NCBI GenBank assembly: GCA_036677085.1
Contig: JAKFFI010000049.1
Location: 12,974 to 36,973 of the forward strand
Origin: Porticoccaceae bacterium
Lineage (GTDB): Bacteria > Pseudomonadota > Gammaproteobacteria > Pseudomonadales > Porticoccaceae
Direction of reading: 5' to 3'
DNA length: 24,000 nt
Below, piece after piece: positions 6,430-24,000 of this stretch. The notes beneath the pieces are model-generated. The model worked only from the letters and a program-made list of their open reading frames with translations. It was not told where the DNA came from and did no database searches. The translations under genes were made by a program, and so were the position numbers. The stretch's first letter is position 1, and each line of letters begins with the position of its first letter.

Positions 6430-8361
6430 TCAGAAGTCGCGGGAAAGCGTCAGCATCAAATTCCGCTCCGGGGATGGATACAGCGCCCGGGTACCGAAAA
6501 AGCTGGCGAACTCAGTGTACTGCTTGTCGGTGATGTTGTTCAGCCGGGCCTGCAGCGTCCAGGCCTGCCGGATCCAGGTCGCCGCCAGATTGGCCACTGT
6601 ATAGCCACCCTGTTGGGCATTGTTGGCGAGATCGAGGTTGCGGGGACCGGTATAAACCAGTTCGCCAAAGAGGTTGAGGTTCTGATCGAAGCGATAATTG
6701 GCGTTGAGTTTCAACAGCTGGCGAGCGACATCGGGTACATGGTTGCTGTCGTAAGGCCCGGCGACGAAGCGGGCATCGACATAGGTATAGATGCCGCCGA
6801 ACACGAGTGCGTCGGTCGCGTGGTAGCGCGCATCCAGGGTGCCGCCACGGCGGCGCGTGTCATCGAAATTGGTATTGGCACCAAAATCTCCGCGCCCCGG
6901 ATCGAAACCAATCTCGTGGTTCAGATCCTGCTGAAACAGCGCGGCATGAGCATCGACGACAGCCCAGCTCCACTCGCCGCCCAATTCCCAGGCGACGCCG
7001 CGCTGCACCTTCAGCGGGTTGAAATTGCCCAGAAAATCGATGTTTTCATCGGCCAGCGCGAAACGGAAGGTTTCGTCGCGATTCAGGTAATAACGGCCGC
7101 GGTCACCGCGCCAGTTGAGACCGACCGTGTGCACGACCGTGCTCTGGTCGTAGTTCAGATCGAAGGGTGTGACTTCGGCATCCAGACGGGCGTGACGCAA
7201 CCCGCCCTGCACGTCGAGACGGTCGAGCGGGCTATAGATGAAATGCAGGTATTCGCTGCGCTTGCGCTGGCGCTGTTCGGTACCGCTCGCACCAAAGCCG
7301 AAATCCAGCGCGAAGTCGTAGTCGACCCGTTCGACATCCATGCCCAGCGTGGCCCGCAGCCCGTCCGTCGCAAACACCAGACGCGGATCGAACGTCCTGA
7401 TCTGGCGCTGCTGTCCGGTGACCGCCGCACCAAAGCTCGACATCGAATTGATGGCCACATCCTCGTTCCGGTCGCCGTAGCTTGCGAACAGCTCCAGATA
7501 TTCCCCCAACCGCTGCTCGCCGCCGATCCGAACTGCCCGGTTGACGGCGGCATAATCGTTGAAACTCGACCCGGCCTGACGGCGATCCTGTGCGACCAGT
7601 GCCGCGGATAACGCGCCCGCCAGACGAAACTCGTCGTCACTCTGGCGCGCCTCGACGAACAGCTCGCCATCCCCGTGGCGCCAGCCCGCCCGCCCACTGT
7701 AGTTTTCGTAATTGATGGCGCCGCCATCCCGGTAGGCGTCGCTGCGCTCGATCTGGGTGCCGACCCGATAATAAAGGCCCGACGCAAATCGATCCTGATA
7801 GCTCCCGGCATAGTTTTCGGCATCGTAGCTGCCGCGCCCGACACTGACTCTGCCCTGACGGGGTCCACCGCTGCGCGTGATGATATTGATCACTCCGCCC
7901 ACCGCCTGATCGCCGTAGAGCGTGCCGGCACCGCCTTCCAGAATCTCAACACGCTCGATATCGCCCACCGCAACCGCCGTGAGGTCGGGCCCCGCCAGAT
8001 CCGTGTTATTGATGGAACGGCCATCGACCAGCACCTGGACGTTCTGCGCGCTGGCGAACCCGCGCAGGGCCAGCCGGCTGTCGCGCCCGGTGCCCATGCT
8101 GTCCTGCACCTGAACCGGGCCCAGGTTGCGCAGCAGTTCGGAAAGATTGTGGGCGCCACTGGCGCGGATTTGCTCCGCGTCGATCACCCGCACCGTGCTT
8201 GCGACATGATCGGCGCTATAGGGCGAGCGGGTGGCGGTGACCACCAGCTCTTCGTCGACCGGGATTGCCGCGCCTGCCGTCGCGACGGCAAACAAGGGTG
8301 CCGCCAGCGCGCCTGAAAACGCGCCCGACAACAAACGTTTCGAGTTGAACTGAACCGACAT
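6430..8361 (-). CDS. btuB: TonB-dependent outer-membrane receptor, BtuB-like (cobalamin)
   Basis: ATG at 8361 (internal to ORF 6430-8481) is preceded by GCGGAG. Signal peptide ...AVATAGAA, TonB box EELVVTATR, plug motifs (IRASGAHNLSELLRNLGPVQV, LALRGF) and a beta-barrel ending in a terminal F (LTLSRDF). A cobalamin riboswitch lies in the leader. Confidence 0.85.
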   Translation of the reverse strand: MSVQFNSKRLLSGAFSGALAAPLFAVATAGAAIPVDEELVVTATRSPYSADHVASTVRVIDAEQIRASGAHNLSELLRNLGPVQVQDSMGTGRDSRLALRGFASAQNVQVLVDGRSINNTDLAGPDLTAVAVGDIERVEILEGGAGTLYGDQAVGGVINIITRSGGPRQGRVSVGRGSYDAENYAGSYQDRFASGLYYRVGTQIERSDAYRDGGAINYENYSGRAGWRHGDGELFVEARQSDDEFRLAGALSAALVAQDRRQAGSSFNDYAAVNRAVRIGGEQRLGEYLELFASYGDRNEDVAINSMSSFGAAVTGQQRQIRTFDPRLVFATDGLRATLGMDVERVDYDFALDFGFGASGTEQRQRKRSEYLHFIYSPLDRLDVQGGLRHARLDAEVTPFDLNYDQSTVVHTVGLNWRGDRGRYYLNRDETFRFALADENIDFLGNFNPLKVQRGVAWELGGEWSWAVVDAHAALFQQDLNHEIGFDPGRGDFGANTNFDDTRRRGGTLDARYHATDALVFGGIYTYVDARFVAGPYDSNHVPDVARQLLKLNANYRFDQNLNLFGELVYTGPRNLDLANNAQQGGYTVANLAATWIRQAWTLQARLNNITDKQYTEFASFFGTRALYPSPERNLMLTLSRDF

Positions 8362-8504
8362 GAACGTGCTCCGCAAGCTAAACCGCCGGACACGGCCACA
8401 GCAGCGGAACCACAGACATTGTGACCCGGCGCGGCGACCGTGCGTCTGCGCTGCACGGCGAACCACGACGGCCCGCAGCAACGGTTACCCCGACCGTTAC
8501 ACGA

Positions 8505-11953: not shown

Positions 11954-13033
11954 ATGTCCCTGATCCCCGAAAAACCGCTGCTTTTCTTCCCCCATGTGGC
12001 GGTGACCCTGGGGCTGCACGAAGCCATCCTGCTGCAAACCCTCAAGGAAATTGCCTGCCACCAACCGGCCGAAGAGCGCAACGGCTTCCGGTGGGTCGAG
12101 ATTGCGGGGGCCAGCCTGCTGGCGCTCCTGCCCTTCTGGAACGAGGCGGAGTTGCAGCATCTCACCGCCAAACTGCGCGAACAGGGAATCCTGCTGATCG
12201 GCGGCGCGCCCCTGTCCGCGACCGGGCGCTGGCGCTTCGCCTTCAACGAGCAGCGCGCCGGCTCCGCCAGTGCCGCCCCGCGCGCCACCAACGTGCAGCC
12301 GATTCGCGGCGACTGGCAACCGGAGCGCGACCTGCTGGCGCAACTCGCCCAGTACGGTATCCCCGGCGCGTTCGCCCTCGCCCAGGTGCCCGAATTCGTC
12401 ACCTACTGGAGCGAACGCGGCGAGCCACGCCACAGCTGGGGTGCGAAATTCATCAAGCAGGTACTGCGCTGCTGGCGCGAACAGGAAACCGTGCAGACAC
12501 GCCGCGATCAGGAACAGCCCATGACGGCGGACTGGCAGCCCGGCGTCGATGCCATGGAAATCCTGGTCCGTGCCGGCATCAACCGCAATTTCATCGAAGA
12601 CGCCGTGCCCGAGTTCGTCCTCTACTGGCGCGACCGCGGTACCTTGTCGAACACTTGGAATTCCCAATTCGTCCAGCATGTGCGGCGCCAGTGGGCGCGC
12701 TACACCACCACGCTGGCCAACGACTCCACGCCCCGACCCATGGTCCCCGACTGGCGGCCCGACCCCGCGGTCTACGACGTGCTCGCCATGGCAGGCATCG
12801 GGCAGAGCTTCGGCGCCAGCCTGGTTCCGGAATTCATCCTCTACTGGCAGGAAAGTGGTGCCGTCCTCAACACCTGGAACACCAAGTTCTTGCAGTACGT
12901 CAAACGGCAATGGGCCCAACGCAACACCACGGCGGAAGTGCGACATGCAACACGGCAAGGACCTGGCAGAACAGGCAGCACGCGATCTCGCGACCTCGTC
13001 GACGAACTCAGCGACCGCAGTTGGGCCGGCTGA
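11954..13033 (+). CDS. DnaT-like ssDNA-binding repeat protein (N-terminal winged-helix-like domain plus three DnaT-type repeats)
   Basis: 359-aa ORF. It has three internal repeats of about 55 aa at roughly 73-aa spacing (nt about 12314-12916), with the pattern W(Q/R)P....... L...GI...F....VPEF(V/I).YW...G....(S/T)W..KF...V.R.W. This resembles the DnaT C-terminal DNA-binding domain. The tail reads ...DLVDELSDRSWAG. Confidence 0.65.
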   Translation: MSLIPEKPLLFFPHVAVTLGLHEAILLQTLKEIACHQPAEERNGFRWVEIAGASLLALLPFWNEAELQHLTAKLREQGILLIGGAPLSATGRWRFAFNEQRAGSASAAPRATNVQPIRGDWQPERDLLAQLAQYGIPGAFALAQVPEFVTYWSERGEPRHSWGAKFIKQVLRCWREQETVQTRRDQEQPMTADWQPGVDAMEILVRAGINRNFIEDAVPEFVLYWRDRGTLSNTWNSQFVQHVRRQWARYTTTLANDSTPRPMVPDWRPDPAVYDVLAMAGIGQSFGASLVPEFILYWQESGAVLNTWNTKFLQYVKRQWAQRNTTAEVRHATRQGPGRTGSTRSRDLVDELSDRSWAG

Positions 13034-13604
13034 ACGGTCGCCCCCCGATCCGGGGCTGATCGACGCCATCAACCAGGCGTTTGCGCTGTTCCGCGTCAAC
13101 TACCACAACCAGTTTTACAGCGCCTTTGCCGATACCACGTTGCTCGACCAGGCCAAGCGACTGTGGCTCGACAGCCTGCGCCATTTCGATCCCGGGCTGG
13201 TGCTCGCCGCCGCCCGCGCGCTGATCGAGCAGGAGGACTACCTTCCCACCCTGCGCAAGATGCTCGGCGCCTGCGAGGACCAGTTGGCCGCACGCGGCAT
13301 GCCGCGTCCCCGCGATGCCTACCGCGAAGCCTGCAACGCGCCCCGCCCCAAGGACGCCCAGCGCTGGTCGCACCCGGCGGTCTACCACGCCGGTCGCGCC
13401 CTGGGTTGGTACGACCTGGCAACGCGGCCCGAAAGCGTGACCTGGCCGGAATTTCAGCGCGCCTACCGCGACTGCTGCCGCCGCGCGCTCGCTGGCGAAG
13501 ACCTGAGCATTCCGGCGCCACCCGCGCCGACACCGGTGCCCGCACTCAGCCGGAAGGATGGCGCCAGGCGGCTGCACGAACTGCGCCGGCAACTGGAGTC
13601 CTGA
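12945..13604 (+). CDS. Phage lambda replication protein P-like protein
   Basis: ATG at 12945 (internal to ORF 12549-13604) overlaps the upstream gene by 89 nt. Translation INQAFALFRVNY...AKRLWLDSL...YLPTLRKMLGAC...GMPRPRDAYREAC...WSHPAVYHAG... aligns in order with lambda P (INGVFSQLL...RRQWVLAF...FLPSPGQFVAWC...GLPNVSELV...). The exact start is uncertain. Confidence 0.55.
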   Translation: MQHGKDLAEQAARDLATSSTNSATAVGPAERSPPDPGLIDAINQAFALFRVNYHNQFYSAFADTTLLDQAKRLWLDSLRHFDPGLVLAAARALIEQEDYLPTLRKMLGACEDQLAARGMPRPRDAYREACNAPRPKDAQRWSHPAVYHAGRALGWYDLATRPESVTWPEFQRAYRDCCRRALAGEDLSIPAPPAPTPVPALSRKDGARRLHELRRQLES

Positions 13605-15445: not shown

Positions 15446-15546
15446 ACGCTTGCGACGAATAGGTGCGCACTTTCGCCAGAACAGCGCGCCTTCGCCAGGA
15501 CAAAGCGCTAATTCTTTCTTTTCACCAGCCTGTCCATGTGAAAAAA

Positions 15547-16191
15547 CTAGTCCGTCTTTGGTTTCGGTTTGAAGATATTGCTACGGCCAGAGCCCCAAAT
15601 AAACACGCCGCAAAACGCGAACAACAGCACATAGTAAGCAACGTATTTGGCGTAATTCCCGCCCCCAACGTAGAACGGAAACACCGAGCGGTAACTCAAC
15701 CCGGTAGCTTGGTGGCGAGCTTCGATAATACCCACATAGCCGCCATTTTCCACAAAAGGATATCGAACGCTTATCGTGCCTGCTCTATACGATTTTGGCT
15801 CTTCGTAGAAAACTGTGGCTTTTTCTACCGCTTCCGGCCCCCCCAAGTCCTCGTAAATCGCCTTGCGACCGATATTTTTGACGTCGCGGACAATCCGAAA
15901 ATCGATGTCCATAACGCGCAGTTCGTCACTAATGAAATCGATTACAAAAATCGCCTTGGTGGCAATTGGAATATCTTCACAGAACTCCTGCGAAGCACGT
16001 TCCTGCGGGAGATAGCCGGTAAAGTGCGCGGTGTATGGCCCGATCTTTATCAAGCACACGTCATCTTCCATGGAGACGCCACCGTGGCCTAACGCGGCTG
16101 CCGACGCGAAGAGCAAGCTCATCCCTACCCACAGGCCAAGCGCCGATTGCAAGCCGCCCGGATGTGTACGATTTTTTTTGGTTCCAATCAT
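15547..16191 (-). CDS. Uncharacterised fourth gene of the CuMMO operon: signal peptide, periplasmic domain of about 150 aa, and C-terminal TM anchor (PmoD/AmoD-like architecture; homology not established)
   Basis: ORF 15547-16227. ATG at 16191 is the likely start; a TTG at 16227 overlaps the pmoB stop as TTGA. It is on the same strand as pmoB, 32 nt downstream. n-region MIGTKKNRT, h-region ALGLWVGMSLLFASAAALG, then HGGVSMEDDVC... The C-terminal helix is YVAYYVLLFAFCGVFIWGSG with a basic tail RSNIFKPKPKTD. It shares the lower GC and A/T-rich third codon positions of pmoCAB. Confidence 0.7.
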   Translation of the reverse strand: MIGTKKNRTHPGGLQSALGLWVGMSLLFASAAALGHGGVSMEDDVCLIKIGPYTAHFTGYLPQERASQEFCEDIPIATKAIFVIDFISDELRVMDIDFRIVRDVKNIGRKAIYEDLGGPEAVEKATVFYEEPKSYRAGTISVRYPFVENGGYVGIIEARHQATGLSYRSVFPFYVGGGNYAKYVAYYVLLFAFCGVFIWGSGRSNIFKPKPKTD

Positions 16192-16223
16192 GAGATAACC
16201 AGCACTCGCATCGCAAACCACCG

Positions 16224-17498
16224 TCAAAAGAAGCTGGGGAGAATTGAGCCACCAAGTTCCTGATAGTAACGTTTTCCTTGATCGTCGTTGTAAAACAATA
16301 GTCCCGCAAAACGACTGTCAGGATCGTCGATCAGACCGGTCATGCGATATTGCTCCCAGAGCGTATCGGATGCCACGATGACAACATCCTTCGTCTCTCC
16401 GGGATTGACGGCATCAACCGAAACCGTGAGGCCATCGCGCGCCACCATTTCCTCGCCTTCGACAATTTTACCCTCGGCGACCTTTGGGTTTACAAAACGG
16501 ATGTTGGCCGTAATAAACTCATCAATCCGCAACGGTCGCTCGCCATTATTGGTCATCTTGGCATTGATGGTCAGGCTTCTACCCTCAAGCTTGTACGAAG
16601 CGTTCTCCACTTCGATCTTGAGATCGCCCGTCGGCACCTCTATGCCTTCTACGAGAACTTTACCCGTCTGCAGCGGAATGGTGAGCGGGTATTTCCATTC
16701 CGCCCACAGATATCCTGTGAGAATGATTGTTAATGTCAGCGTGAAAAATATAGCCGAAGCAACAAAGTCTCTTCTGGTCAGAAGTTCATTTGCCCGGTCG
16801 TTGCCAAGCGCCCGGATACGCATGAACCTTGGGATAAAAAGCTCCTTTCGGACCAACCAGAACAGCAACCATGCGACACCCATGGCAATCCAAACCAAGT
16901 GCCAACCGATCACACCACTCAACCCAAAGGTCTCGAGGTCAACAGTTTCGCCAGTAAGCAGTGTTGCATCGTTGACAAAGGGGGCATCCGTGTTCGCCTT
17001 GTCAATCTCAAGCCAGGTCCCTTTGCCGATAAGGGAACCTGCATCTAACACATTAATCAACGGATGAACATGATAGCGACCCGGGATTCGCGCGCGCAGG
17101 ACAACCTTGTATTCGTACACTTTGCCCAATGGGAACGCCGTGGACCGCATCATGGGCACGCCGTTTACTTCCGAGTGCACCCTGAGGAAGGTCGGGCCGG
17201 GGACACCGACATTGAGATAAGCGGTGTCGGCGATGCTGGGCAGGGTTTCCGGCCAAGACGTGGACGGGATGAACTTGCCCGTGAGGGTAACGGTATCGCC
17301 CACCTTGGCCTTGAGGGGAGTGACTTGAGTGTCAAACCAGTGCACCGTCCTCATCCGCATGCTCGCCAATTGAGCGCGCTCACCGTGAGCCAGAACTTCG
17401 CCGGAGAACAGCACCAGCGCCGACAATACGATTGAAGTCAGCCCCAATCTCGAACGGATTTTTTTTGCAGCCATCACAGTCTGTTTTTTAGCACCCAC
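16224..17498 (-). CDS. pmoB: Copper membrane monooxygenase subunit B (PmoB/AmoB/HmoB family)
   Basis: 424 aa, with GTG start at 17498 preceded by GAGGGGA. Signal peptide ends ...SGEVLA, followed by HGERAQLASMRMRTVHWFD (M. capsulatus: HGEKSQAAFMRMRTIHWYD). The GRYHVHP (HxH) motif is conserved, there are two central TM helices, and the C-terminus reads DPDSRFAGLLF....LPSFF. Confidence 0.93.
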   Translation of the reverse strand: MGAKKQTVMAAKKIRSRLGLTSIVLSALVLFSGEVLAHGERAQLASMRMRTVHWFDTQVTPLKAKVGDTVTLTGKFIPSTSWPETLPSIADTAYLNVGVPGPTFLRVHSEVNGVPMMRSTAFPLGKVYEYKVVLRARIPGRYHVHPLINVLDAGSLIGKGTWLEIDKANTDAPFVNDATLLTGETVDLETFGLSGVIGWHLVWIAMGVAWLLFWLVRKELFIPRFMRIRALGNDRANELLTRRDFVASAIFFTLTLTIILTGYLWAEWKYPLTIPLQTGKVLVEGIEVPTGDLKIEVENASYKLEGRSLTINAKMTNNGERPLRIDEFITANIRFVNPKVAEGKIVEGEEMVARDGLTVSVDAVNPGETKDVVIVASDTLWEQYRMTGLIDDPDSRFAGLLFYNDDQGKRYYQELGGSILPSFF

Positions 17499-17553
17499 GC
17501 CTTATTCCCCTCAGTTTCGATCAATTACTTATTAAAATGCAGGTTGATTTTTC

Positions 17554-18357
17554 TCACATGATACGCTTGGCGAAAGTCACCAGCTTATTCACATAAGAAC
17601 CCACCCACAGGAAGATGGCATAGACCACAATGCTGACAAAACCGGCAAACACGGCCGTCAACGGTACTACCGACCCGCCGAAAGTGCGCAGCGTGGAACT
17701 CTCGATAATTCTCAGGTATTCGGGGGTAGTGGTACGGATATATTCGTACCCCATCAAATCGGCCAGTGACAGCAGCGTGCCATTGAACTCCACCGCCGTC
17801 CTGTATGCCGCGATCAGGGGCCAATTCAATGGGTACACCAGGGCGCCGAACAAACCGGCACCTATGAAAGCGGAAACGACGAGACTGCGGGTCATTACCA
17901 GCGCACAATCGAGCAGAATGCCAACCCCGATGTAGGTCGCCGGAAAGACAAAAGTTAGCGGAAAGTAGGTAAAGTGATAGAAATTCAGGTAGTGGCTGCC
18001 CCAGGCCACCAGACACAACAGTGTAGTTAAGGCGGTCGCCATGATGGGTAGGCGTACCCGCTGCCATATGCCGTAGGTGAAGGCTCCTATAGGCATCAAC
18101 AGGGTAAGCGGCGTCACCAAAGGCCACCACCGACGATCTTTCCAATCTACCCAGTAATCCCAATCCCCAGCCGTCAAAGTGAATTGGATCTGGATTCCCA
18201 GGGTAAGAAAAGTAAACAACACCAAAATCAGGATTCCGTCGAGCCGTCGATATAGCTTCATGGCGGCCGGATTGTTAAGCGACTCCATGTCGAGAATCTG
18301 CGCTCTGGCTTCTTTTACTTCCTTGGCCCGCAACTCTTCTGATTGCACTTCGTTCAT
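17554..18357 (-). CDS. pmoA: Copper membrane monooxygenase subunit A (PmoA/AmoA family)
   Basis: 267 aa, with ATG at 18357 preceded by GAGGTG. Hallmark blocks are GDWDYWVDWKDRRWW, YFPLTFVFPA, NWPLIAA, EFNGTLLSLADLMGYEYIRTTTPEYLRIIE and TLRTFG. Confidence 0.93.
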   Translation of the reverse strand: MNEVQSEELRAKEVKEARAQILDMESLNNPAAMKLYRRLDGILILVLFTFLTLGIQIQFTLTAGDWDYWVDWKDRRWWPLVTPLTLLMPIGAFTYGIWQRVRLPIMATALTTLLCLVAWGSHYLNFYHFTYFPLTFVFPATYIGVGILLDCALVMTRSLVVSAFIGAGLFGALVYPLNWPLIAAYRTAVEFNGTLLSLADLMGYEYIRTTTPEYLRIIESSTLRTFGGSVVPLTAVFAGFVSIVVYAIFLWVGSYVNKLVTFAKRIM

Positions 18358-18418
18358 CTGGGCGACACCTCACGTTTTTGAAATGGCAATAGGCTGAGGG
18401 CGTGCAGCGGCTGTCCGC

Positions 18419-18454
18419 AGAAAAGAGTCCCCGCAAGTATGCTTGCGGGGACTC
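18419..18454 (-). terminator. Strong stem-loop plus short U-run in the pmoC-pmoA intergenic region (attenuator, partial terminator or mRNA-stability element)
   Basis: gagtccccgcaag (18425-18437) pairs with cttgcggggactc (18442-18454) as a 13-bp perfect stem with a 4-nt loop. On the minus strand it is followed by UUUUCU (plus-strand 18419-18424). It lies 62 nt after the pmoC stop and 68 nt before the pmoA ATG. Confidence 0.5.
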
Positions 18455-18515
18455 AGGGATTACCACTTTAGTACGCCGAGATCTCTCGACAAAAAGATGG
18501 TGCTTGATGGAGAGA

Positions 18516-19316
18516 TCAAACCACCTGGCGACTTTTGAGGGCAGTCACCTGTGCGATGGAGCGGCCCATGTAGGTGAAGAGCTGCACGACCAGCGGTACA
18601 AAGAAAAACAGCGACCAGCCCAGCAAGACAAAGCCCCAATGGATCGGCGCCGCAAACAGTTCCTCTGCATAGAAGAACGTATGGCCCCACTCATTGAACC
18701 CATAATTCGGCATGATCATGAGAATGCCGACAACCACTGCCAGGAACGGCAGCGACACTTTGTTCATGTAGGCCGGCAGGCGGGTGTGCGCCCAGATGAA
18801 CGTCGGAATCAGCATCGCGGTCAGGAAAGGCAGCGAGAAGTAGAAAATGATGATGTGGGTCGGGGTGAAATCGGTATCCCGGATCGTCACCTGATGCCAG
18901 GCGGCGTCCGACTCTACCGACGTAATCGCCACCGTCGCGGCCCACAACCCCATGACGGTAAACACGCCAAGCAGCTTCCAGTAGCGGCTTAACTCAAGTT
19001 CGGGGCCAATCTTGCTGGCGTCTGTCTCGCGCGTCATCCACATATAAACGGACACAGCAACGGTAAACAAGGTCAGTACGATGATTTCGCCGTACAGCAG
19101 TGGCATCCAATAGGTCTGGAATTCTGGGGCGTAATAGTCGGTTCCCGTCGAAAACGCCATCATGCCCATATAAAGACGCAACCCGGCGCCGACCGCCAGC
19201 ACCAATGCGCCAAAGCCCCAAGCAATCCGGTTTCGCCTGAAGTGTCCGGCAGTCTTGCTGCCAAAGCTCTCGCCGGAGCCGACAGCCAAGTCGTTCGTAG
19301 CGTGTGTCTGTGCCAT
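18516..19316 (-). CDS. pmoC: Copper membrane monooxygenase subunit C (PmoC/AmoC family)
   Basis: 266 aa, with ATG at 19316 preceded by AGGGG. Conserved blocks are SDAAWHQVTIRDTDFTPTHII and NYGFNEWGHTFFYAEELFAAPIHWGF (M. capsulatus: LDASWHQTIVRDTDFTPSHII and [26 protein letters not shown]). Confidence 0.93.
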   Translation of the reverse strand: MAQTHATNDLAVGSGESFGSKTAGHFRRNRIAWGFGALVLAVGAGLRLYMGMMAFSTGTDYYAPEFQTYWMPLLYGEIIVLTLFTVAVSVYMWMTRETDASKIGPELELSRYWKLLGVFTVMGLWAATVAITSVESDAAWHQVTIRDTDFTPTHIIIFYFSLPFLTAMLIPTFIWAHTRLPAYMNKVSLPFLAVVVGILMIMPNYGFNEWGHTFFYAEELFAAPIHWGFVLLGWSLFFFVPLVVQLFTYMGRSIAQVTALKSRQVV

Positions 19317-19504
19317 ATCAAGTACCCCTATATAATATAATAATGATGTCAGTCAGTGGTTCGGTTAACCGTATGCACCCATATCCGGCGGACGAGTCCA
19401 TTGCTCCGTGGACACCGCGACTACCTCGCTTAGGACTGCCTGTCGAAACGGTGCCATGAAGCACTGGACAACTCTTCATGATCGTACGTTATTTTGTTGG
19501 ATGA

Positions 19505-19533
19505 ACTATAGGCAAGCCATCCGATTCTGTTAC
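19505..19533 (-). promoter_or_regulatory. Candidate sigma70 promoter for the CuMMO operon
   Basis: Minus strand reads GTAACA (19533-19528), a 17-nt spacer, then TATAGT (19510-19505). This would give a leader of about 180 nt. It is an eyeball match only. Confidence 0.25.
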
Positions 19534-19908
19534 AGGACAATAGGTGACAGAGGTATTGCAGAAAGTGACATCGGCTTTCGACTCTGACTTGCCTTACTTG
19601 GCAGGCTTTAATTCATATCTAATTGAAAACTAACTACTTTTTTCCGAACAGTCAGTATTCACACCAATACCAGGCTACGGCCTTGGGCACATTTCATTGA
19701 GTTTTATTCGCCAGCGCCACCCACGCCAGGGAGCCCCGGGGTAATTCGGTTGGCGCACCCTTCCAGTGCACCTTTGCCCGCTCGCCGTCGGCATGCGAGA
19801 ATCCGCTGCTCAGCAAACTTACTATCGTGAAGCTGCCCGCGCGTCCTGACCGCCAAACCTAATTTGCGGCCGGACGGTTCGCTGCGGGGCCGTGGTCAGA
19901 GAGATAAC

Positions 19909-20982
19909 ATGACAGAACCACACGGCTCCATGCGCCCCCCCGACAAGCTGGCGGTCGCGGCACAACCACCCACGCCCGATAGCCGCTTCGTCAATGCCAG
20001 CTATGCCAACATGGTATTTCACACCCTGGGAGGAGGGCCCGAGGTACGCGCTATTTTCGAGCGCCATGGCCTGCCGAAGTCGCTGCTGGAAGACTCGAGT
20101 GCGCCGGTCCCGTTTGCGGATCTGGCGCAAGCCGTGTTTGCGGTCATGGCGGCTCTCGACCTGCCTACCGCGGGGCTATCGCTCGGCTCCAAGCTCCATG
20201 TCTCCAAACACGGCACCATCGGCATGGCGGTCATCTCCGCCGAAACGGTAGGGCAGGCGATCAAGGACATCGCCAGGTACTACCAGACGACCGTAACCTT
20301 CTGCGACATGGCCATGTTCTACGAGGGGGACCGAATTGTCCTGGAGCTCAAGGAAGCGTTCACCAGCCCTGAAATCAAGGTGATCGTCGTCGAGGCGCTG
20401 ATGCTGACGCTGCAAAACGCCCTCGAATTCGTCAGCGGCCAGCCACTCACCGACAGCCGGATTATCTTCGGGTACCCCCCACCGCCCTATGCGGACCAGT
20501 ACGATCTGTATTTTTCCGGCAAGACCGAGTTCGACGGCGATCGCCATCTGATGATTCTGCCGGCGTCCCTCCAGGCAGTACGCTGCGTCTCGGCCGATGC
20601 CCGCATCCACCGCATGGCGGAAGAGCAACTCCAGCACCAGATGCACGAGCTGCGCGCCAACAACATCACCGCCCACCATATCCTGGCGGAATTGCGCAAA
20701 AACCCTGCTGCCATGCCGACACTCAAGGACATGGCCAAGGCGTTCAGCCTTTCGTCGCGCACCCTGATCCGGCATCTGCAAGCGGAAGGCACCACCTACC
20801 GCGATCTGCGCGAAAGCATCCACAAGCAGATGGCGATTGACTCACTGCGTAATTCGGACCAATCCATCGACGCCATCGCGATGGAATTGGGCTACCAGGA
20901 CACCACCAGTTTTCGCCGCGCGTTCAAACGCTGGTGTGGCTGCTCGGCCTCCGAGTACCGGGAACGCAGCCGCCGCGAATGA
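19909..20982 (+). CDS. AraC/XylS-family transcriptional regulator (N-terminal AraC-binding-like domain, C-terminal double HTH)
   Basis: ORF 19864-20982, ATG at 19909 preferred. The C-terminus reads LKDMAKAFSLSSRTLIRHLQAEGTTYRDL....A...L.....SIDAIAMELGYQDTTSFRRAFKRWCGCSASEYR. It is divergent from the CuMMO operon across a spacer of about 590 bp. Confidence 0.85.
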   Translation: MTEPHGSMRPPDKLAVAAQPPTPDSRFVNASYANMVFHTLGGGPEVRAIFERHGLPKSLLEDSSAPVPFADLAQAVFAVMAALDLPTAGLSLGSKLHVSKHGTIGMAVISAETVGQAIKDIARYYQTTVTFCDMAMFYEGDRIVLELKEAFTSPEIKVIVVEALMLTLQNALEFVSGQPLTDSRIIFGYPPPPYADQYDLYFSGKTEFDGDRHLMILPASLQAVRCVSADARIHRMAEEQLQHQMHELRANNITAHHILAELRKNPAAMPTLKDMAKAFSLSSRTLIRHLQAEGTTYRDLRESIHKQMAIDSLRNSDQSIDAIAMELGYQDTTSFRRAFKRWCGCSASEYRERSRRE

Positions 20983-21056: not shown

Positions 21057-21875
21057 ATGGCAAATCAAGGCATTCAAATTTCCCTGGCCGGCAAGGTCGC
21101 GCTGATCACCGGCGCGGCGCGCGGTCTCGGCGCCGAAATCGCCGCCACTTTTTCCCGCGCCGGTGCCGCCGTCATGATCGCGGATATCCTGGAGGATCAG
21201 GGGCGCCAGACCGCCGCCGCCATCCAGGCCAGCGGCGGGCGGGCGGCCTTTATCCGCCAGGACGTAACCCGTGAAGCCGACTGGGAGACCGCCGTCACCG
21301 AAACGGTACGACAACTGGGCGGCCTGGATATCCTGGTCAACAATGCCGGCATCGAGATCTGTGCCCTGGTCGAAAACACCGAGCTGAAGGATTTCCAGCG
21401 CATCCTGGATATCAATGTGACCGGGGTTTTCCTGGGTCTGAAAGCCGCCTGCAAGGCGATGAAGCCGGGTGGCGCAGCGGGTCGCGGCGGCGCCATCATC
21501 AATCTGTCGTCGGTGGCGGGGTTGCGCGGCTTCTCGGGCCTCAGCGCCTACTGCGGCAGCAAGGGCGCGGTCAAACTGCTGACCAAGGCCGCCGCCGTCG
21601 AATTCGGATTTCTCAACTACGGCATCCGGGTGAATTCCATCCACCCCGGTCTGATCCCGACCGACATGGGCAACGCGGTGCTGAAAGGGTTTGTGACGGC
21701 AGGTCTCGGCAAGGACGCGGCCAGTGTGCAGCAGGCGTTCGAGCGCGGGACGCCGCTGGGCATGAAAGGCACCCCGTCCGATATCGCCAAGGCAGCCTTG
21801 TTCCTGGCGAGCGATCAGTCGCCCTGGGTCACCGGCGCAGAGATCGTGGTCGATGGCGGGACTACCGCCACCTGA
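21057..21875 (+). CDS. Short-chain dehydrogenase/reductase (classical SDR)
   Basis: 272 aa, with ATG at 21057 preceded by GGGAGGA. Cofactor motif ITGAARGLG, NNAG, catalytic Ser (LSSVAG) and YCGSK (YxxxK). Confidence 0.9.
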   Translation: MANQGIQISLAGKVALITGAARGLGAEIAATFSRAGAAVMIADILEDQGRQTAAAIQASGGRAAFIRQDVTREADWETAVTETVRQLGGLDILVNNAGIEICALVENTELKDFQRILDINVTGVFLGLKAACKAMKPGGAAGRGGAIINLSSVAGLRGFSGLSAYCGSKGAVKLLTKAAAVEFGFLNYGIRVNSIHPGLIPTDMGNAVLKGFVTAGLGKDAASVQQAFERGTPLGMKGTPSDIAKAALFLASDQSPWVTGAEIVVDGGTTAT

Positions 21876-21899
21876 CCCCAGCTCACCACGTGAAATCCA

Positions 21900-21920
21900 G
21901 CGACGCCGGGGTGGCGTCGC
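21900..21920. terminator. Small GC hairpin between convergent SDR and ParA-like genes
   Basis: gcgacgcc (21900-21907) pairs with ggcgtcgc (21913-21920) around the loop ggggt. There is no U-tract on either strand. Confidence 0.3.
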
Positions 21921-21926
21921 ACGGGT

Positions 21927-22598
21927 TCAGTCCGGTTTTGCGCGCGCATTCGCGCGTGAAGACCGGCTCAACCAGCGCAGGATACGCAGCCACTGCTCCC
22001 GGTCCGGGAAAGTCCTGACCGGGGCGAACTCGAAGATCGACAGGCCCCGCTCGGCGGCCTGAATATAGTTCTGGCTGGCGCGCAACGCCGCGAGAAATGG
22101 AAACGGCTTGCCGTTGGGCAAGCTGAAGTCCTGCAAGTAGCTTTCCAGACCTGCCGCCGCCACGGATTGCTCCCGCACCCGATTGGCCACCGTCGCCAGC
22201 CGCACGCCGCCATTGACCAGCTTGCGCACCGCATTCAATTCGCCAATGAAATGACCGGCCGCGCGGATATCGATGGGCGAAGGCAACAGGGGCATCAGCA
22301 CGCTGTCGGCCCGCCGTACCAGCTCCGCCAGCTCGCGGCCATGCGTCGCCGCCGGGCTGTCCATGATCAGCCAGTCGGTGTCGCGGGGTACCCGCAGTCC
22401 ATCCCGCCAGGCGGCGATGCCCTCGATCCCGGGACGATCCGCGGGGCGCACCGCGAGCCAGTCCATACTGCAACCCTGGGGATCGAAATCGGCCAGCACC
22501 ACGCGCCTGCCCTTGCTGGCGTGATAGCCGGCCAGATTGGTGGCGAGAGTGGTTTTGCCGCATCCACCCTTGGCATTGAGAACGAGCACAGTTCGCAT
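21927..22598 (-). CDS. ParA/MinD-family P-loop ATPase (orphan; no parB-like partner seen)
   Basis: 223 aa, with ATG at 22598 preceded by GGAGGAGGG. It has the deviant Walker A LNAKGGCGKTTLATNLA and Walker A' region VVLADFDPQG. Confidence 0.85.
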   Translation of the reverse strand: MRTVLVLNAKGGCGKTTLATNLAGYHASKGRRVVLADFDPQGCSMDWLAVRPADRPGIEGIAAWRDGLRVPRDTDWLIMDSPAATHGRELAELVRRADSVLMPLLPSPIDIRAAGHFIGELNAVRKLVNGGVRLATVANRVREQSVAAAGLESYLQDFSLPNGKPFPFLAALRASQNYIQAAERGLSIFEFAPVRTFPDREQWLRILRWLSRSSRANARAKPD

Positions 22599-22662
22599 TG
22601 TCCCTCCTCCCTGTTGCGAGCACCGCGAGGTGGGCTTGCCGCCACCCTCCGGGCGCCAGAAC

Positions 22663-23427
22663 TCAGTGCGCGGTATAGCCGCCGTCGATGATCAGTTCCG
22701 TACCCGTGACATAGCGGGACTCGTCGGACGCGAGATACAGAATCCCGTACGCCTGATCGATGGGCTCCGCCATGTGACCGATGACGATCTCGTGCTGGAT
22801 CCGCGCCAGATCGGCGGGACCAAATACACCCCCGACGCTTTCCGCCATGGGCGTTTTGGTAAATCCGGGATGTACGGAATTCACCCGGATGTTGTACTTC
22901 TTCTCGGCGCAGTAGAGCGCTGCCGATTTGGTGAACAGCCGCACCCCACCCTTGCTGGCATTGTAGGCCGCGGAACGCGGATCGCCGATGATGCCTTCAA
23001 TCGACGAGATGTTCACGATACTGCCACCGCCGTTCTGCTTCATCTGGCGGATCGCATTCTGGGTGCCCATGAACACCGCTTCCAGATTGACCGCGTGCAC
23101 AAAGCGCCAGTGGGCGAGATCGCTGTTTTCCAGATCGGTGCCGGCACCCACACCGGCGTTGTTGACCAGCACATCGAGGCGGCCATGGTGGCGCACCACC
23201 TCGGCGACGACCTCGCGCCAGCGCGTCTCGGACGTCACGTCCTGTTCGACAAAACGGGCGTCATAACCCTGGTCACGCAATTTTTGCGCCGCCGCCTCGC
23301 CTTCCTTCGGTCGGATATCGGTGATCACCACCGCGCCGCCCTCGCGGCCGAACAGCTCGGCACTGGCGTAGCCGATGCCGGCCGTGCCGCCGGTGATCAA
23401 ACACACCTTGCCCTGAATCCTCCCCAT
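22663..23427 (-). CDS. Short-chain dehydrogenase/reductase (classical SDR, hydroxysteroid or secondary-alcohol dehydrogenase-like)
   Basis: 254 aa, with ATG at 23427. Motifs ITGGTAGIG, NNAGVG, ISSIEG and YNASK, and the C-terminus IIDGGYTAH. Confidence 0.9.
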   Translation of the reverse strand: MGRIQGKVCLITGGTAGIGYASAELFGREGGAVVITDIRPKEGEAAAQKLRDQGYDARFVEQDVTSETRWREVVAEVVRHHGRLDVLVNNAGVGAGTDLENSDLAHWRFVHAVNLEAVFMGTQNAIRQMKQNGGGSIVNISSIEGIIGDPRSAAYNASKGGVRLFTKSAALYCAEKKYNIRVNSVHPGFTKTPMAESVGGVFGPADLARIQHEIVIGHMAEPIDQAYGILYLASDESRYVTGTELIIDGGYTAH

Positions 23428-23440
23428 GACCCTGTCCTCG

Positions 23441-24000
23441 TCAGTGCGCCGTAAAGCCGCCGTCGATGACCAGCTCGGAACCGGTCATGTAGCGGGACTC
23501 ATCGGAAGCCAGAAACAGGATGCCGTAGGCCTGGTCGATGGGCTCGGCCATATGGCCCACCACAATCTCGCGGTTGATGCGCTCGGCATCCGCGGGCGAG
23601 AACAGGTCGATCGCGCTGTCCACCATGGGCGTCTTGGTGAAACCCGGATGCACCGAATTGACGCGGATGTTGTACTTTTTCTCGGCGCAGTAGAGGGCGG
23701 CGGATTTGGTGAACAGCCGCACGCCACCCTTGCTGGCGTTGTAGGCCGCGAATCTGGGGTCGCCCACCAATCCCTCGATGGACGAGATATTGATGATGCT
23801 GCCGCCGCCATTGAGCTTCATCTGCCGGATCGCGTGCTGGGTGCCCAGGAACACCGCTTCCATATTGACGCCGTTGACGAAGCGCCAGTGGGCGAGATCG
23901 CTGTTTTCCAGATCGGTTTCGACGCCCACGCCGGCGTTGTTGACCAGCACGTCGAGGCGGCCATGGTGGCGCACCGCCTCGGCGACCACTTCGGGCCAGC
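23441..24000 (-). CDS. Short-chain dehydrogenase/reductase, tandem paralogue of 22663-23427; N-terminal part lies outside the window
   Basis: The frame is open to the window edge. The visible 182+ residues are about 80-85% identical by eye to the downstream SDR (same NNAGVG, ISSIEG, YNASKGGVRLFTKSAALYCAEKKYNIRVNSVHPGFTKTPM and VIDGGFTAH). Confidence 0.9.
   Translation of the reverse strand, partial: WPEVVAEAVRHHGRLDVLVNNAGVGVETDLENSDLAHWRFVNGVNMEAVFLGTQHAIRQMKLNGGGSIINISSIEGLVGDPRFAAYNASKGGVRLFTKSAALYCAEKKYNIRVNSVHPGFTKTPMVDSAIDLFSPADAERINREIVVGHMAEPIDQAYGILFLASDESRYMTGSELVIDGGFTAH

Follow-up and report, generated by a model that had tools for sequence, protein, structure and literature searches.

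An apparently functional four-gene copper membrane monooxygenase operon, xmoCABD, of a Porticoccaceae-type clade, adjoining genes that resemble secondary-alcohol dehydrogenases

The xmoCABD operon and its copper sites

The window, i.e. the whole 24-kb stretch of DNA analysed, comes from an uncultured high-GC gammaproteobacterium labelled Porticoccaceae by the MAG submitters, and carries what is, judging by its sequence, a complete and apparently functional four-gene copper membrane monooxygenase (CuMMO) operon, xmoCABD (Table 1). Three co-oriented minus-strand ORFs, xmoC, xmoA and xmoB, were found where an earlier sequence-only reading had placed a C-A-B set, and Pfam confirmed that assignment with scores far above gathering thresholds (211.6 bits for XmoC against AmoC, 238 bits for XmoA against AMO and 405.9 bits for XmoB against Monooxygenase_B); the fourth gene, xmoD, located directly downstream of xmoB, had been missed. 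The neighbouring aceK, AraC-family and short-chain dehydrogenase (SDR) genes listed by that reading were also recovered using Pfam. The top PDB matches of all three subunits were chains of particulate methane monooxygenase (pMMO), namely PmoC 6cxh_C for XmoC (6.3e-50), PmoA 1yew_B for XmoA (1.7e-59) and PmoB 6cxh_A for XmoB (1.4e-101).

Table 1 Features of the xmo locus (positions refer to the window)
Feature	Position	Strand	Evidence
xmoD, PmoD-family periplasmic copper-protein homologue, 214 aa	15547..16191	-	phmmer, profile, Foldseek to 6cpd
xmoB, CuMMO subunit B, 424 aa, signal peptide	16224..17498	-	Pfam Monooxygenase_B 2.5e-121
xmoA, CuMMO subunit A, 267 aa	17554..18357	-	Pfam AMO 1.8e-70
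Terminator-like stem-loop, xmoC-xmoA spacer	18425..18454	-	motif scan, fold z-score, conservation
xmoC, CuMMO subunit C, 266 aa	18516..19316	-	Pfam AmoC 1.5e-62
AT-rich divergent intergenic region, candidate promoter	19317..19908		composition, promoter scan
AraC-family regulator, 357 aa as called in metagenomes	19909..20982	+	Pfam Arabinose_bd + HTH_18
SDR1, short-chain dehydrogenase, 272 aa	21057..21875	+	Pfam adh_short_C2 4e-62
Orphan ParA/CbiA-like P-loop ATPase, 223 aa	21927..22598	-	Pfam CbiA 5.5e-14
SDR2, R-specific alcohol dehydrogenase-like SDR, 254 aa	22663..23427	-	NCBIfam, PDB match 1zjy
SDR3, SDR2 tandem paralogue, N-terminus missing at window end	23441..24000	-	Pfam adh_short_C2 1.7e-43

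Copper ligands were called by aligning XmoB and XmoC to solved pMMO chains and computing the corresponding residue positions. In XmoB, the CuB site comprised His38, the first residue past the predicted signal peptide (..VLA|HGE..), together with His143 and His145 of an HVH motif, while XmoC contained the CuC (Asp137-x3-His141-x12-His154) and CuD (Asn208-x3-His212-x13-His226) ligand sets. All nine of these residues were invariant in 38/38 aligned homologues. The claim that every CuB, CuC and CuD ligand can be read off the translations was thus borne out, and with its full set of metal ligands the enzyme looks intact. Given this conservation, XmoCAB would be expected to assemble like pMMO and to bind copper both at the N-terminal His/HVH site of XmoB and at two sites in XmoC. 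An identical XmoA recurred, in unchanged synteny, in 58 sample blocks.

Although databases list the xmoD product as hypothetical, by sequence, profile and predicted fold it is a homologue of PmoD-family copper proteins. XmoD matched PmoD 6cpd in a phmmer search (6.8e-11), and a profile search against PDB returned this structure (3.2e-18) and no other; an AlphaFold model (pLDDT 79.8) was aligned to 6cpd by Foldseek with an E-value of 3.8e-12 and a TM-score of 0.87. His36, Cys46, His56 and Cys71 were invariant, and the motif C-x7-T-x-H assigns the protein to the Cx9HxnC class, rather than the CuA class, of the motif classes described for the family (PMC6189053). In 35 of the 38 related named loci xmoD was located 3' of xmoB. 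We read XmoD as a membrane-anchored periplasmic PmoD-type copper protein whose role is probably to deliver copper to, or handle electrons for, XmoCAB.

Regulatory features

The 158-nt xmoC-xmoA spacer contained a stem-loop with a 13-bp stem and a U-rich tail in the motif scan (fold z = -4.7). A hairpin was seen at the equivalent spot in 14 of the 16 related loci examined, and an alignment of 10 sequences revealed compensatory changes on both sides in 8 of 14 pairs. The element is probably a partial terminator or stabilises the mRNA, and this conserved hairpin 3' of xmoC would probably tune the ratio of xmoC to xmoAB message.

Transcription of xmoCABD probably starts in the AT-rich region 5' of xmoC (GC 0.45–0.52), controlled by the divergent AraC-type regulator. 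A candidate sigma-70 promoter was located there (GTAACA-17 nt-TATAGT, positions 19533–19505, minus strand), albeit in a scan in which the count of promoter-like matches was no higher than expected by chance. Bases 19317–19576 could be aligned to relatives and those at ~ 19577–19763 could not; an AraC operator presumably lies within this intergenic region. The regulator itself, which matched Arabinose_bd (6.9e-29) as well as HTH_18 and had CypR as its top NCBIfam match (170 bits, below the cut-off of 500), was syntenic in L007–L013, L017–L019 and L056, and is a probable activator of the xmo operon.

Relationship to other CuMMOs

Neighbour-joining analysis of XmoA, the only tree method used and run without references from Haliea, Cycloclasticus or the B045 MAGs, recovered a clade of 32 non-redundant MAG sequences with 200/200 bootstrap support, of which the labelled members were Porticoccaceae, Pseudomonadales or Gammaproteobacteria. 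Within the clade, identity to the window's XmoA ranged from 54 to 85%, no sequence outside exceeded 51%, and the nearest named relatives were Porticoccaceae MAG proteins (69–76%). Among 1.84 billion proteins at 50% clustering, only the window's own cluster representative scored above 221 bits.

As the sequence-only reading had suggested, the enzyme was not nested in canonical pmo or amo clades: XmoA was 42–43% identical to PmoA of M. capsulatus and 20Z and fell outside the pMMO group in the neighbour-joining tree, and both XmoA and XmoC scored below the NCBIfam pMMO/AMO equivalog cut-offs. The locus shares with pMMO (M. capsulatus Bath, M. alcaliphilum 20Z; 1yew, 3rgb, 6cxh, 7s4h) the C, A and B subunits, the CuB, CuC and CuD ligands and a PmoD-family partner; it differs in that no C1 metabolism genes are found near xmo and in that the XmoD motif does not have the Met of the CuA-forming class.

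The affinity to actinobacterial hmo/bmo enzymes proposed by the same reading was not upheld. The hosts of those systems (hmoCAB of Mycolicibacterium chubuense NBB4; Rhodococcus sp. ZPP) are likewise neither methanotrophs nor nitrifiers, and there too an AMP-binding ligase is encoded close to the operon. However, XmoA was only 33–37% identical to actinobacterial HmoA (and to PxmA) and subunit B ~ 30% identical, while the actinobacterial loci (L048, L050) contained no pmoD-like gene and no such SDRs, and adjoin mdo, annotated as an NDMA-dependent methanol dehydrogenase. More similar in layout were the xmoCAB(D) loci of Nevskiaceae and Burkholderiales (Solimonas, Panacagrimonas, Nevskia, Hydrogenophaga, Aquabacterium), which share the CABD order, an XmoD with the same HGGVS...C-x9-H...EFCEDIP signature, and hosts that are neither methanotrophs nor nitrifiers; their XmoA proteins, however, were 45–51% identical and lay on the opposite side of a split with 77% bootstrap support, and the SDR/AraC module described below was not detected in their xmo loci.

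By sequence, the enzyme belongs to a Porticoccaceae-type CuMMO clade that is distinct from pMMO, AMO, Pxm and actinobacterial HMO. Judging by taxon labels, this is probably the Porticoccaceae CuMMO (‘pHMO’) clade of Arrington et al. (bioRxiv 10.1101/2022.11.07.515388), reported from the genera B045, HB2-32-21 and FW300_53, tied to methylcyclohexane and methylcyclopentane blooms and proposed to act on methylcycloalkanes, a substrate assignment reached there by genomic inference. On this reading the clade is already described in that 2022 preprint, and the window enzyme is a further member. The window's clade and that of the preprint both stand apart from proteobacterial pmo/amo and have hydrocarbon-associated hosts, and soils polluted with petrol and diesel show enrichment of related 16S taxa. 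The window's lineage differs from other members in the GC content of the locus (60–62% versus ~ 47–52%), and the window has neither the pair of multicopper oxidases nor the RND transporter found after xmoD in most of them. Neither xmoD, nor the SDR/AraC module, nor any ketone carboxylase is mentioned in the preprint (‘carboxylase’ occurs 0 times in a text search).

Conserved neighbourhood and proposed reaction

The gene order ligase, SDR(s), ParA-like, SDR1, AraC, xmoCABD was kept in L007–L009, L012, L017–L019 and L056, relatives with XmoA identities of 60–97% and otherwise different flanks. A second subclade (L051, L054) had no SDR/AraC module, with acyl-CoA dehydrogenase, MoxR and VWA genes upstream instead. 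This conserved module and xmoD, the best functional clues at the locus, went unrecognised in the sequence-only reading. The module SDRs were closest to R-specific secondary alcohol dehydrogenases. SDR2 scored 306 bits against the NCBIfam NADP-dependent (R)-specific alcohol dehydrogenase (cut-off 400) and had R-specific alcohol dehydrogenase 1zjy as its top PDB match (8.8e-66). SDR1, conserved within the module across related loci, matched (R)-specific alcohol dehydrogenase and trans-4-hydroxycyclohexanecarboxylate dehydrogenase at ~ 220 bits each, below the cut-offs. The match of the truncated SDR3 begins at profile position 61, and a paralogue pair of the SDR2/SDR3 type was 84% identical in L008. 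The ParA-like gene (NCBIfam ParA_partition, 115 bits versus a cut-off of 180) was retained in every locus with the full order.

The window ends within SDR3. In close relatives the next gene beyond the tandem SDRs is an acyl-CoA ligase, and L008/L009 and L059 additionally carry an Apc-type (acetophenone-carboxylase-type) cluster in the order HydA, gamma, HydA', HydB, epsilon-like, CoA ligase, whose position would lie beyond the window. This cluster is variable among relatives: in L007 and L017 rimO immediately precedes the ligase and no apc genes intervene. The HydB of the cluster scored higher against ApcD (297 bits) than against the acetone carboxylase alpha subunit (156 bits). The order equals apcABCDE-bal of the anaerobic ethylbenzene pathway of Aromatoleum aromaticum (Ped, ApcABCDE, Bal), and the SDRs that come after the cluster and ligase in L008/L009 parallel the 1-phenylethanol dehydrogenase step. 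The two systems differ in that an O2-dependent CuMMO would here replace the oxygen-independent ethylbenzene dehydrogenase, in that HydB of the relatives scores far below the ApcD equivalog cut-off (227 versus 1500 bits), and in that L007 and L017 lack the cluster at this position.

Methanol dehydrogenase, hydroxylamine oxidoreductase and CopC/CopD domains were found in no sizeable ORF of the window, in agreement with the sequence-only reading, whose view of the context as neither methanotroph nor nitrifier held within these 24 kb. A divergent pMMO in an unrecognised methanotroph could account for the retention of every pMMO metal ligand and for a PmoD homologue, a family most strongly linked to methane and ammonia oxidisers (PMC6189053), and the isolate names of some related MAGs, taken as names alone, suggest sand filters. 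We nevertheless consider this very unlikely, given the distance of XmoA from solved PmoA, scores of XmoA, XmoB and XmoC below the TIGR pMMO/AMO equivalog cut-offs, secondary-alcohol dehydrogenases as conserved neighbours, and a lack of genes for methanol dehydrogenase or C1 assimilation both in these 24 kb and in ~ 20 kb of ten related loci. An ammonia monooxygenase, with the host a new nitrifier of heterotrophic or lithotrophic type, is highly improbable. Automated annotation would indeed call an ammonia monooxygenase subunit, since XmoB passes the NCBIfam AmoB_BACT cut-off (467 versus 336 bits); the gene order is that of amoCAB-amoD of Nitrosococcus (PMC6189053), and amtB is present at 4442–5755. 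However, AmoA_BACT (253 versus 290 bits) and AmoC_BACT (228 versus 319 bits) both fell short, solved AMO chains scored below pMMO chains, hao or cytochrome genes were found in none of the loci examined, and amtB, a ubiquitous gene, is 11 kb distant and surrounded by housekeeping genes.

Epoxidation of alkenes (ethylene/propylene) has been proposed for Haliea, of a neighbouring marine gammaproteobacterial family, whose pMMO-like genes are linked to ethylene assimilation (credited to Suzuki 2012), and CuMMOs are promiscuous enzymes. Such a role is improbable here: a CoM pathway, epoxide hydrolase and glutathione transferase were not found in the window or related loci, ethylene-type sequences fall outside the Porticoccaceae clade (bioRxiv 10.1101/2022.11.07.515388), and the SDR module suits alcohols rather than epoxides. 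We also regard as unlikely that the enzyme oxidises a ketone or another oxygenate instead of a hydrocarbon. An acetone-oxidising CuMMO is documented (Methylacidiphilum PmoCAB3, acetone to acetol; PMC8630023), and ketone-metabolism genes adjoin the operon (SDRs, and the Apc-type carboxylase in relatives); however, hydroxylation of the ketone would make the ketone carboxylase next to the operon superfluous, XmoA was 32.5% identical to the Methylacidiphilum PmoA compared, and three secondary-alcohol dehydrogenases are more simply placed downstream of a hydroxylase. Finally, lower GC3 in xmoA, xmoB and xmoD (0.59–0.66) than in adjacent genes (0.75–0.82), and greater divergence of the xmo block than of its flanks among the close relatives compared, would fit a passenger operon that was acquired recently, is poorly expressed or is decaying, and has no current role. 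This appears extremely unlikely for an operon with four intact ORFs and every ligand kept, an identical XmoA and synteny across the sample blocks, AraC/SDR synteny held down to 60% XmoA identity, and a regulatory hairpin maintained by compensatory changes.

The analysis itself shows what the genes are, which ligands are conserved, where the enzyme falls phylogenetically and how far synteny extends; activity, regulation, substrate and downstream route we infer. A Baeyer-Villiger monooxygenase, needed by a cycloalkane route, was not found within 24 kb. We consider it rather likely, if far from certain, that the enzyme is a non-methane, non-ammonia hydrocarbon hydroxylase of the Porticoccaceae-type clade yielding a secondary alcohol, as the conserved neighbour genes suggest. 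XmoCABD would most likely hydroxylate a secondary carbon of a non-methane hydrocarbon; the candidates are a cyclo- or methylcycloalkane, a short n-alkane attacked subterminally, or an alkylbenzene attacked on its side chain. The three adjacent R-ADH-like SDRs would then oxidise the resulting alcohol to a ketone. The ligase next in line in close relatives and, in some, the five-gene Apc-type carboxylase suggest that this ketone may then be carboxylated to a beta-keto acid and converted by the ligase to its CoA ester.

Subunits, copper ligands and phylogenetic placement

In methane and ammonia oxidation CuMMOs are the key enzymes; to our knowledge little characterisation exists for their relatives that oxidise hydrocarbons, and we know of no experimentally established substrate for the Porticoccaceae-type clade. 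The three CuMMO subunit genes of the window are contiguous, co-oriented and arranged in the order C-A-B, and all three exceeded Pfam gathering thresholds. Top matches among solved structures were pMMO chains (1.4e-101 for PmoB, 1.7e-59 for PmoA and 6.3e-50 for PmoC), with bacterial AMO chains scoring somewhat lower for XmoA, XmoB and XmoC. Alignments to solved chains together with position counts placed the CuB site of XmoB at His38 and at His143/His145 of an HVH motif, His38 being the first residue past the predicted signal peptide (cleavage between VLA and HGERAQ). In XmoC, structure alignment and position count identified the CuC site as Asp137-x3-His141-x12-His154 and the CuD site as Asn208-x3-His212-x13-His226. 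All nine ligand residues were invariant in 38/38 aligned homologues. The sequence-only reading had thus placed these open reading frames and copper ligands correctly. Judged by subunit homology and metal ligands, XmoCAB belongs to the CuMMO superfamily, and at the level of sequence the enzyme is intact.

Features of the window discussed in the text
Feature	Coordinates	Strand	Description
xmoC	18516-19316	-	Pfam AmoC PF04896, 211.6 bits, 1.5e-62
xmoA	17554-18357	-	Pfam AMO PF02461, 238 bits, 1.8e-70
xmoB	16224-17498	-	Pfam Monooxygenase_B PF04744, 405.9 bits, 2.5e-121
xmoD	15547-16191	-	Starts 32 nt past the end of xmoB; 214 aa according to metagenome gene callers
Terminator-like hairpin	18425-18454	-	13-bp GC-rich stem, U-rich tail, in the 158-nt xmoC-xmoA spacer
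xmoC-araC intergenic region			592 bp, AT-rich, upstream of xmoC
Segment of the intergenic region	19577-19763		~190 bp, read from alignments as a variable insert
SDR1	21057-21875	+	Short-chain dehydrogenase
ParA/CbiA-like P-loop ATPase	21927-22598	-	Orphan, between SDR genes; kept to 60% XmoA identity
SDR2	22663-23427	-	Short-chain dehydrogenase
SDR3	23441-24000	-	Short-chain dehydrogenase
TonB-dependent receptor gene	6430-8481	-
Cobalamin riboswitch RF00174	8500-8691	-	90.4 bits, E 1.7e-21; upstream of the receptor gene
DnaT-repeat protein	11954-13033	+	359 aa, three DnaT DNA-binding repeats (PF17948, 1.3e-71)
ORF after the DnaT-repeat protein	12549-13604	+	Weak lambda replication protein P domain

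A neighbour-joining tree was built from 132 non-redundant XmoA sequences with 200 bootstrap replicates, using as references solved PmoA (M. capsulatus, 20Z), Methylacidiphilum PmoA, Methylomagnum PxmA, NBB4 HmoA and the Rhodococcus ZPP subunit. In this tree, which held no Haliea, Cycloclasticus, Nitrosococcus or B045 reference sequences, the window XmoA fell into a 32-member clade (200/200 replicates) apart from the solved PmoA chains; bacterial AmoA stood outside the tree and was compared through PDB scores alone, which were lower. Members of the clade were MAG and metagenome sequences, the labelled ones being Porticoccaceae, Pseudomonadales or Gammaproteobacteria. Identity to the window XmoA was 54-85% within the clade and at most 51% for the best sequence outside it, falling to 42-43% for solved PmoA. 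When 1.84 billion 50%-cluster representatives were searched, only the representative of the window's own cluster scored high (74% identity); the next full-length representative was 45% identical, and labels among the ten named representatives were Methylacidiphilum, an Actinomycetota MAG and an Alphaproteobacteria MAG.

Canonical pMMO/AMO equivalog models (NCBIfam TIGR03078/79/80 and NF041557/640/641) were passed in one case out of six. Both XmoA scores (236.9 vs a cut-off of 318, 253.1 vs 290) and both XmoC scores (204.3 vs 280.6, 228 vs 319) were below threshold; XmoB missed one cut-off (377.5 vs 394.9) and passed that of AmoB_BACT (466.7 vs 336), so automated pipelines will label this subunit a bacterial ammonia monooxygenase. 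Surveys based on amoA/pmoA, as well as automated annotation, may therefore assign such genes wrongly to nitrifiers. With five of six cut-offs missed and XmoA in a separate clade, the earlier claim that this is no ordinary pMMO or AMO held up, and the sequence comparisons argue that the window CuMMO is not a canonical member of either group. The affinity to actinobacterial HMO/BMO proposed alongside was not borne out: XmoA was 33-37% identical to HmoA and PxmA, hmo loci carry mdo (annotated NDMA-dependent methanol dehydrogenase) instead of SDRs, and xmoD was found neither in the actinobacterial hmo loci nor in the pxm locus of Methylomagnum.

A novel monophyletic pmo clade, found only in three genera of Porticoccaceae (B045, HB2-32-21, FW300_53) and separate from the pmo/amo sequences of other proteobacteria, has been described, with methylcyclohexane and methylcyclopentane proposed as its substrates from genomics only (Arrington et al., bioRxiv 2022, 10.1101/2022.11.07.515388). 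Related 16S taxa bloom in soils polluted with petrol or diesel. Our 32-member clade matches this description by taxon labels, and that study's B045 MAG sequences were not identified among its sequences. The genome of isolate DC_out119, source of the related locus L014, may be a Douglas Channel HB2-32-21 genome, a guess made from the isolate name. The rapid-sand-filter metagenome studies searched for the Porticoccaceae-type clade contained no mention of it. It is probably with this already described clade that the window CuMMO has its affinity.

Identical XmoA was found in 58 sample blocks, with the same neighbours every time; a cultured member of the lineage was not found. The closest genomes, at 96-97% XmoA identity, were four MAGs: 'Gammaproteobacteria bacterium' Bjer_18-Q3-R1-45_BAT3C.258, uncultured Gammaproteobacteria bacterium MFD10097.bin.1.40, Gammaproteobacteria bacterium B_bin_40 and 'Porticoccaceae bacterium' CA_2019_TPBF_14. 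Further Porticoccaceae MAGs followed at 69-83%, and at ~50% and below the relatives were Nevskiaceae (Solimonas, Panacagrimonas, Nevskia), Hydrogenophaga and Aquabacterium. The locus extends the Porticoccaceae-type clade to a high-GC lineage, whose sources, judging only from MAG isolate names, are wastewater, soil and sand-filter samples.

A PmoD-family gene downstream of xmoB

The gene following xmoB, xmoD, is annotated as hypothetical in source databases; it had no Pfam or NCBIfam match, and its homologues, 30 in all, likewise fell into no Pfam family when scanned. Comparison with the PmoD soluble domain (PDB 6cpd) gave 6.8e-11 for the single sequence and an E-value of 3.2e-18 for a 30-sequence profile, which matched no other PDB entry. 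The same entry was the best structural match of the predicted XmoD model (Foldseek E 3.8e-12, TM 0.87), followed by weak matches to AA10 LPMOs (TM 0.3-0.4). PmoD proteins are CuMMO-linked and consist of a signal peptide, a periplasmic cupredoxin-like domain with two conserved cysteines, plus a transmembrane helix at the C-terminus (Fisher et al. 2018, PMC6189053). In XmoD, the model had helices at residues 12-32 and 181-205 on either side of beta strands that run between 39 and 175, and Cys46 and Cys71 were invariant among aligned homologues. As judged from profile and predicted model, XmoD is a member of the PmoD/AmoD family.

Only the Cx7MxHxnC subclass of PmoD (Cys41, Met49 and His51 of PmoD Met49242_1452) forms a CuA site, and the Cx9HxnC class bound copper and formed none (PMC6189053). 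The motif in XmoD reads C46-x7-T54-x-H56...C71, with T, K, R, S or L at the Met position in 36/36 aligned homologues, which assigns it to the Cx9HxnC class and not to the CuA-forming subclass. The predicted mature N-terminus was an invariant His (residue 36, GHGGVS; 30/30 aligned homologues), and a histidine-brace-type copper site at this end of the modelled protein is conceivable.

The position of xmoD directly after xmoB was kept in 35 of 38 related named loci (Porticoccaceae, Nevskiaceae, Aquabacterium), so the operon is best written xmoCABD. PmoD, so far deemed essentially specific to methane and ammonia oxidisers, is encountered here in a large group of non-methanotroph CuMMO operons, which widens the known range of the family.

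Conserved neighbours, regulatory features and allele mosaicism

Divergent from xmoC, across the intergenic region, lie genes for an AraC-family regulator (best NCBIfam match CypR, below cut-off), SDR1, the ParA/CbiA-like ATPase and the tandem paralogues SDR2 and SDR3. SDR2 was nearest to R-specific secondary alcohol dehydrogenases (NCBIfam NF052562, 306 bits; PDB 1zjy, 8.8e-66), and an exact look-up returned no other record identical to it. An alternative ORF at 21883-22623 was rejected as the ParA-like gene, being in the wrong frame by codon-position GC; no ParB partner or plasmid context was seen for the ATPase. The full module, in the order 519-aa acyl-CoA ligase, SDR(s), ParA-like, SDR1, AraC, xmoCABD, was present in related loci L007-L009, L012, L017-L019 and L056 (XmoA identity 60-97%), whose flanks otherwise differ; its SDR/AraC part was wholly absent from a second subclade (L051, L054). 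Most clade members (L012, L014, L017-L019, L051, L054-L057) have, right after xmoD, genes for a multicopper oxidase, for a small Cu-oxidase_2-like protein and for an RND/MMPL transporter; aceK takes this place in the window and in L007, L009 and L016.

Methanol dehydrogenase with C1 assimilation genes and hydroxylamine oxidoreductase were found neither in the 24 kb window nor in ~20 kb of the related loci. The absence of methanol dehydrogenase, HAO and CopC/CopD from the window, noted in the sequence-only reading, was confirmed for every sizeable ORF, and its view of a locus typical of neither a methanotroph nor a nitrifier agrees with the hydrocarbon/alcohol-type neighbours.

Some relatives additionally carry genes of an Apc-type ketone carboxylase (L008, L009 and L059). 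L008 and L009 (96-97% XmoA identity) have an epsilon-like ORF and a Hydantoinase_B protein ahead of the ligase. Full clusters were seen in L058 and L059 (HydA, Acetone_carb_G, HydA', HydB and a ~275-aa ORF), followed by the ligase in L059, the same order as the apcABCD(E)-bal arrangement defined for acetophenone-carboxylase-type enzymes (Weidenweber et al.). The HydB protein scored 297 bits with ApcD and 156 bits with the alpha subunit of acetone carboxylase, and is thus nearer to the former. In L007 and L017, rimO lies directly ahead of the ligase with no apc genes at that position, so the carboxylase link is variable; the window itself stops inside SDR3, short of where such a cluster would lie. 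In L018 (1148-2188) and L059 (14680-15693), the acyl-CoA ligase is followed by a metallochaperone GTPase of the CobW/COG0523 type, which may have to do with loading metal into the Apc-type carboxylase.

The hairpin between xmoC and xmoA (fold z = -4.7) is kept throughout the Porticoccaceae-type clade: of 16 related loci examined, 14 had a hairpin in this place, with double compensatory changes at 8/14 pairs in a 10-sequence alignment. It is probably a partial terminator or RNA stabiliser, and may set the ratio of xmoC to xmoAB transcripts. A repeat search for AraC operators in the intergenic region returned only chance-level 10-mers. The segment at 19577-19763 could not be aligned to the 92-94% identical relatives L007-L010, with both sides aligning; on these alignments the regulatory region has a variable insert here.

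GC3 was 0.59-0.66 in xmoA, xmoB and xmoD versus 0.75-0.82 in the AraC, SDR and ligase genes, a dip seen only in the high-GC sublineage and missing from relatives with 47-52% GC. A recently acquired island, as the dip alone might imply, is too simple a reading, since GC3 is host-like in the AraC, SDR and ligase genes that share the synteny. Across 15541-19577, comparison with L016, L009 and L008 gave 77.5-86% nucleotide identity in the xmo block and 93-95% in the flanks. In L016, identity changed at the xmoD/xmoB junction from 94-95% in the flanks to 77.5% in xmoB and xmoA; in L009 it was 93-94.5% in the flanks and 85.8% in the xmo block. Together with the GC3 of xmoA, xmoB and xmoD, 0.1-0.2 below that of the genes around them, this mosaic suggests that xmo alleles were replaced through recombinational exchange among related lineages.

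Elsewhere in the window, the cobalamin riboswitch ahead of the TonB-dependent receptor gene indicates that the receptor is probably a BtuB-type B12 importer. An unusual primosome-like DnaT/protein P pair lies between radA and aceK and is kept in relatives.

A candidate pathway for hydrocarbon oxidation

Taken as a whole, the sequence-only reading of an intact, non-canonical enzyme in a hydrocarbon/alcohol-type context stands, with the Porticoccaceae-type clade taking the place of hmo/bmo. Because actinobacterial hmo loci are flanked by mdo and this one by SDRs, the product here is expected to be a secondary alcohol, which would be in keeping with hydroxylation of a ring or of a subterminal position; for some genomes, ketone carboxylation and then CoA activation would come after alcohol oxidation. 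These assignments of chemistry go beyond gene identity. In the scheme we propose, the CuMMO would hydroxylate a hydrocarbon that ends in CH2-CH3, be it propane, butane or a ring bearing an ethyl group, to a secondary alcohol. Stereo-complementary SDRs would turn this alcohol into a methyl ketone, which would be carboxylated by an ATP-dependent enzyme of the Apc type, and a Bal-like ligase would activate the product. The monooxygenase would be assisted by a PmoD subclass that had gone unannotated and whose mature N-terminus, an invariant His (HGGVS), could form a histidine-brace copper site. Such a route would mirror, under aerobic conditions, the ethylbenzene pathway known from anaerobes. That the CuMMO serves as the O2-dependent entry to a sequence of hydroxylation, dehydrogenation and ketone carboxylation, helped by a histidine-brace PmoD subclass, is a speculative proposal that we rate as rather improbable in its entirety.

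What is new here is the recognition of xmoD and of the conserved module of SDRs, ligase and, variably, Apc genes, which leads to a testable pathway hypothesis. For this clade of CuMMOs, the conserved association with an AraC regulator, three secondary-alcohol-type SDRs, a CoA ligase and sometimes an Apc carboxylase provides a concrete substrate hypothesis that is open to test.
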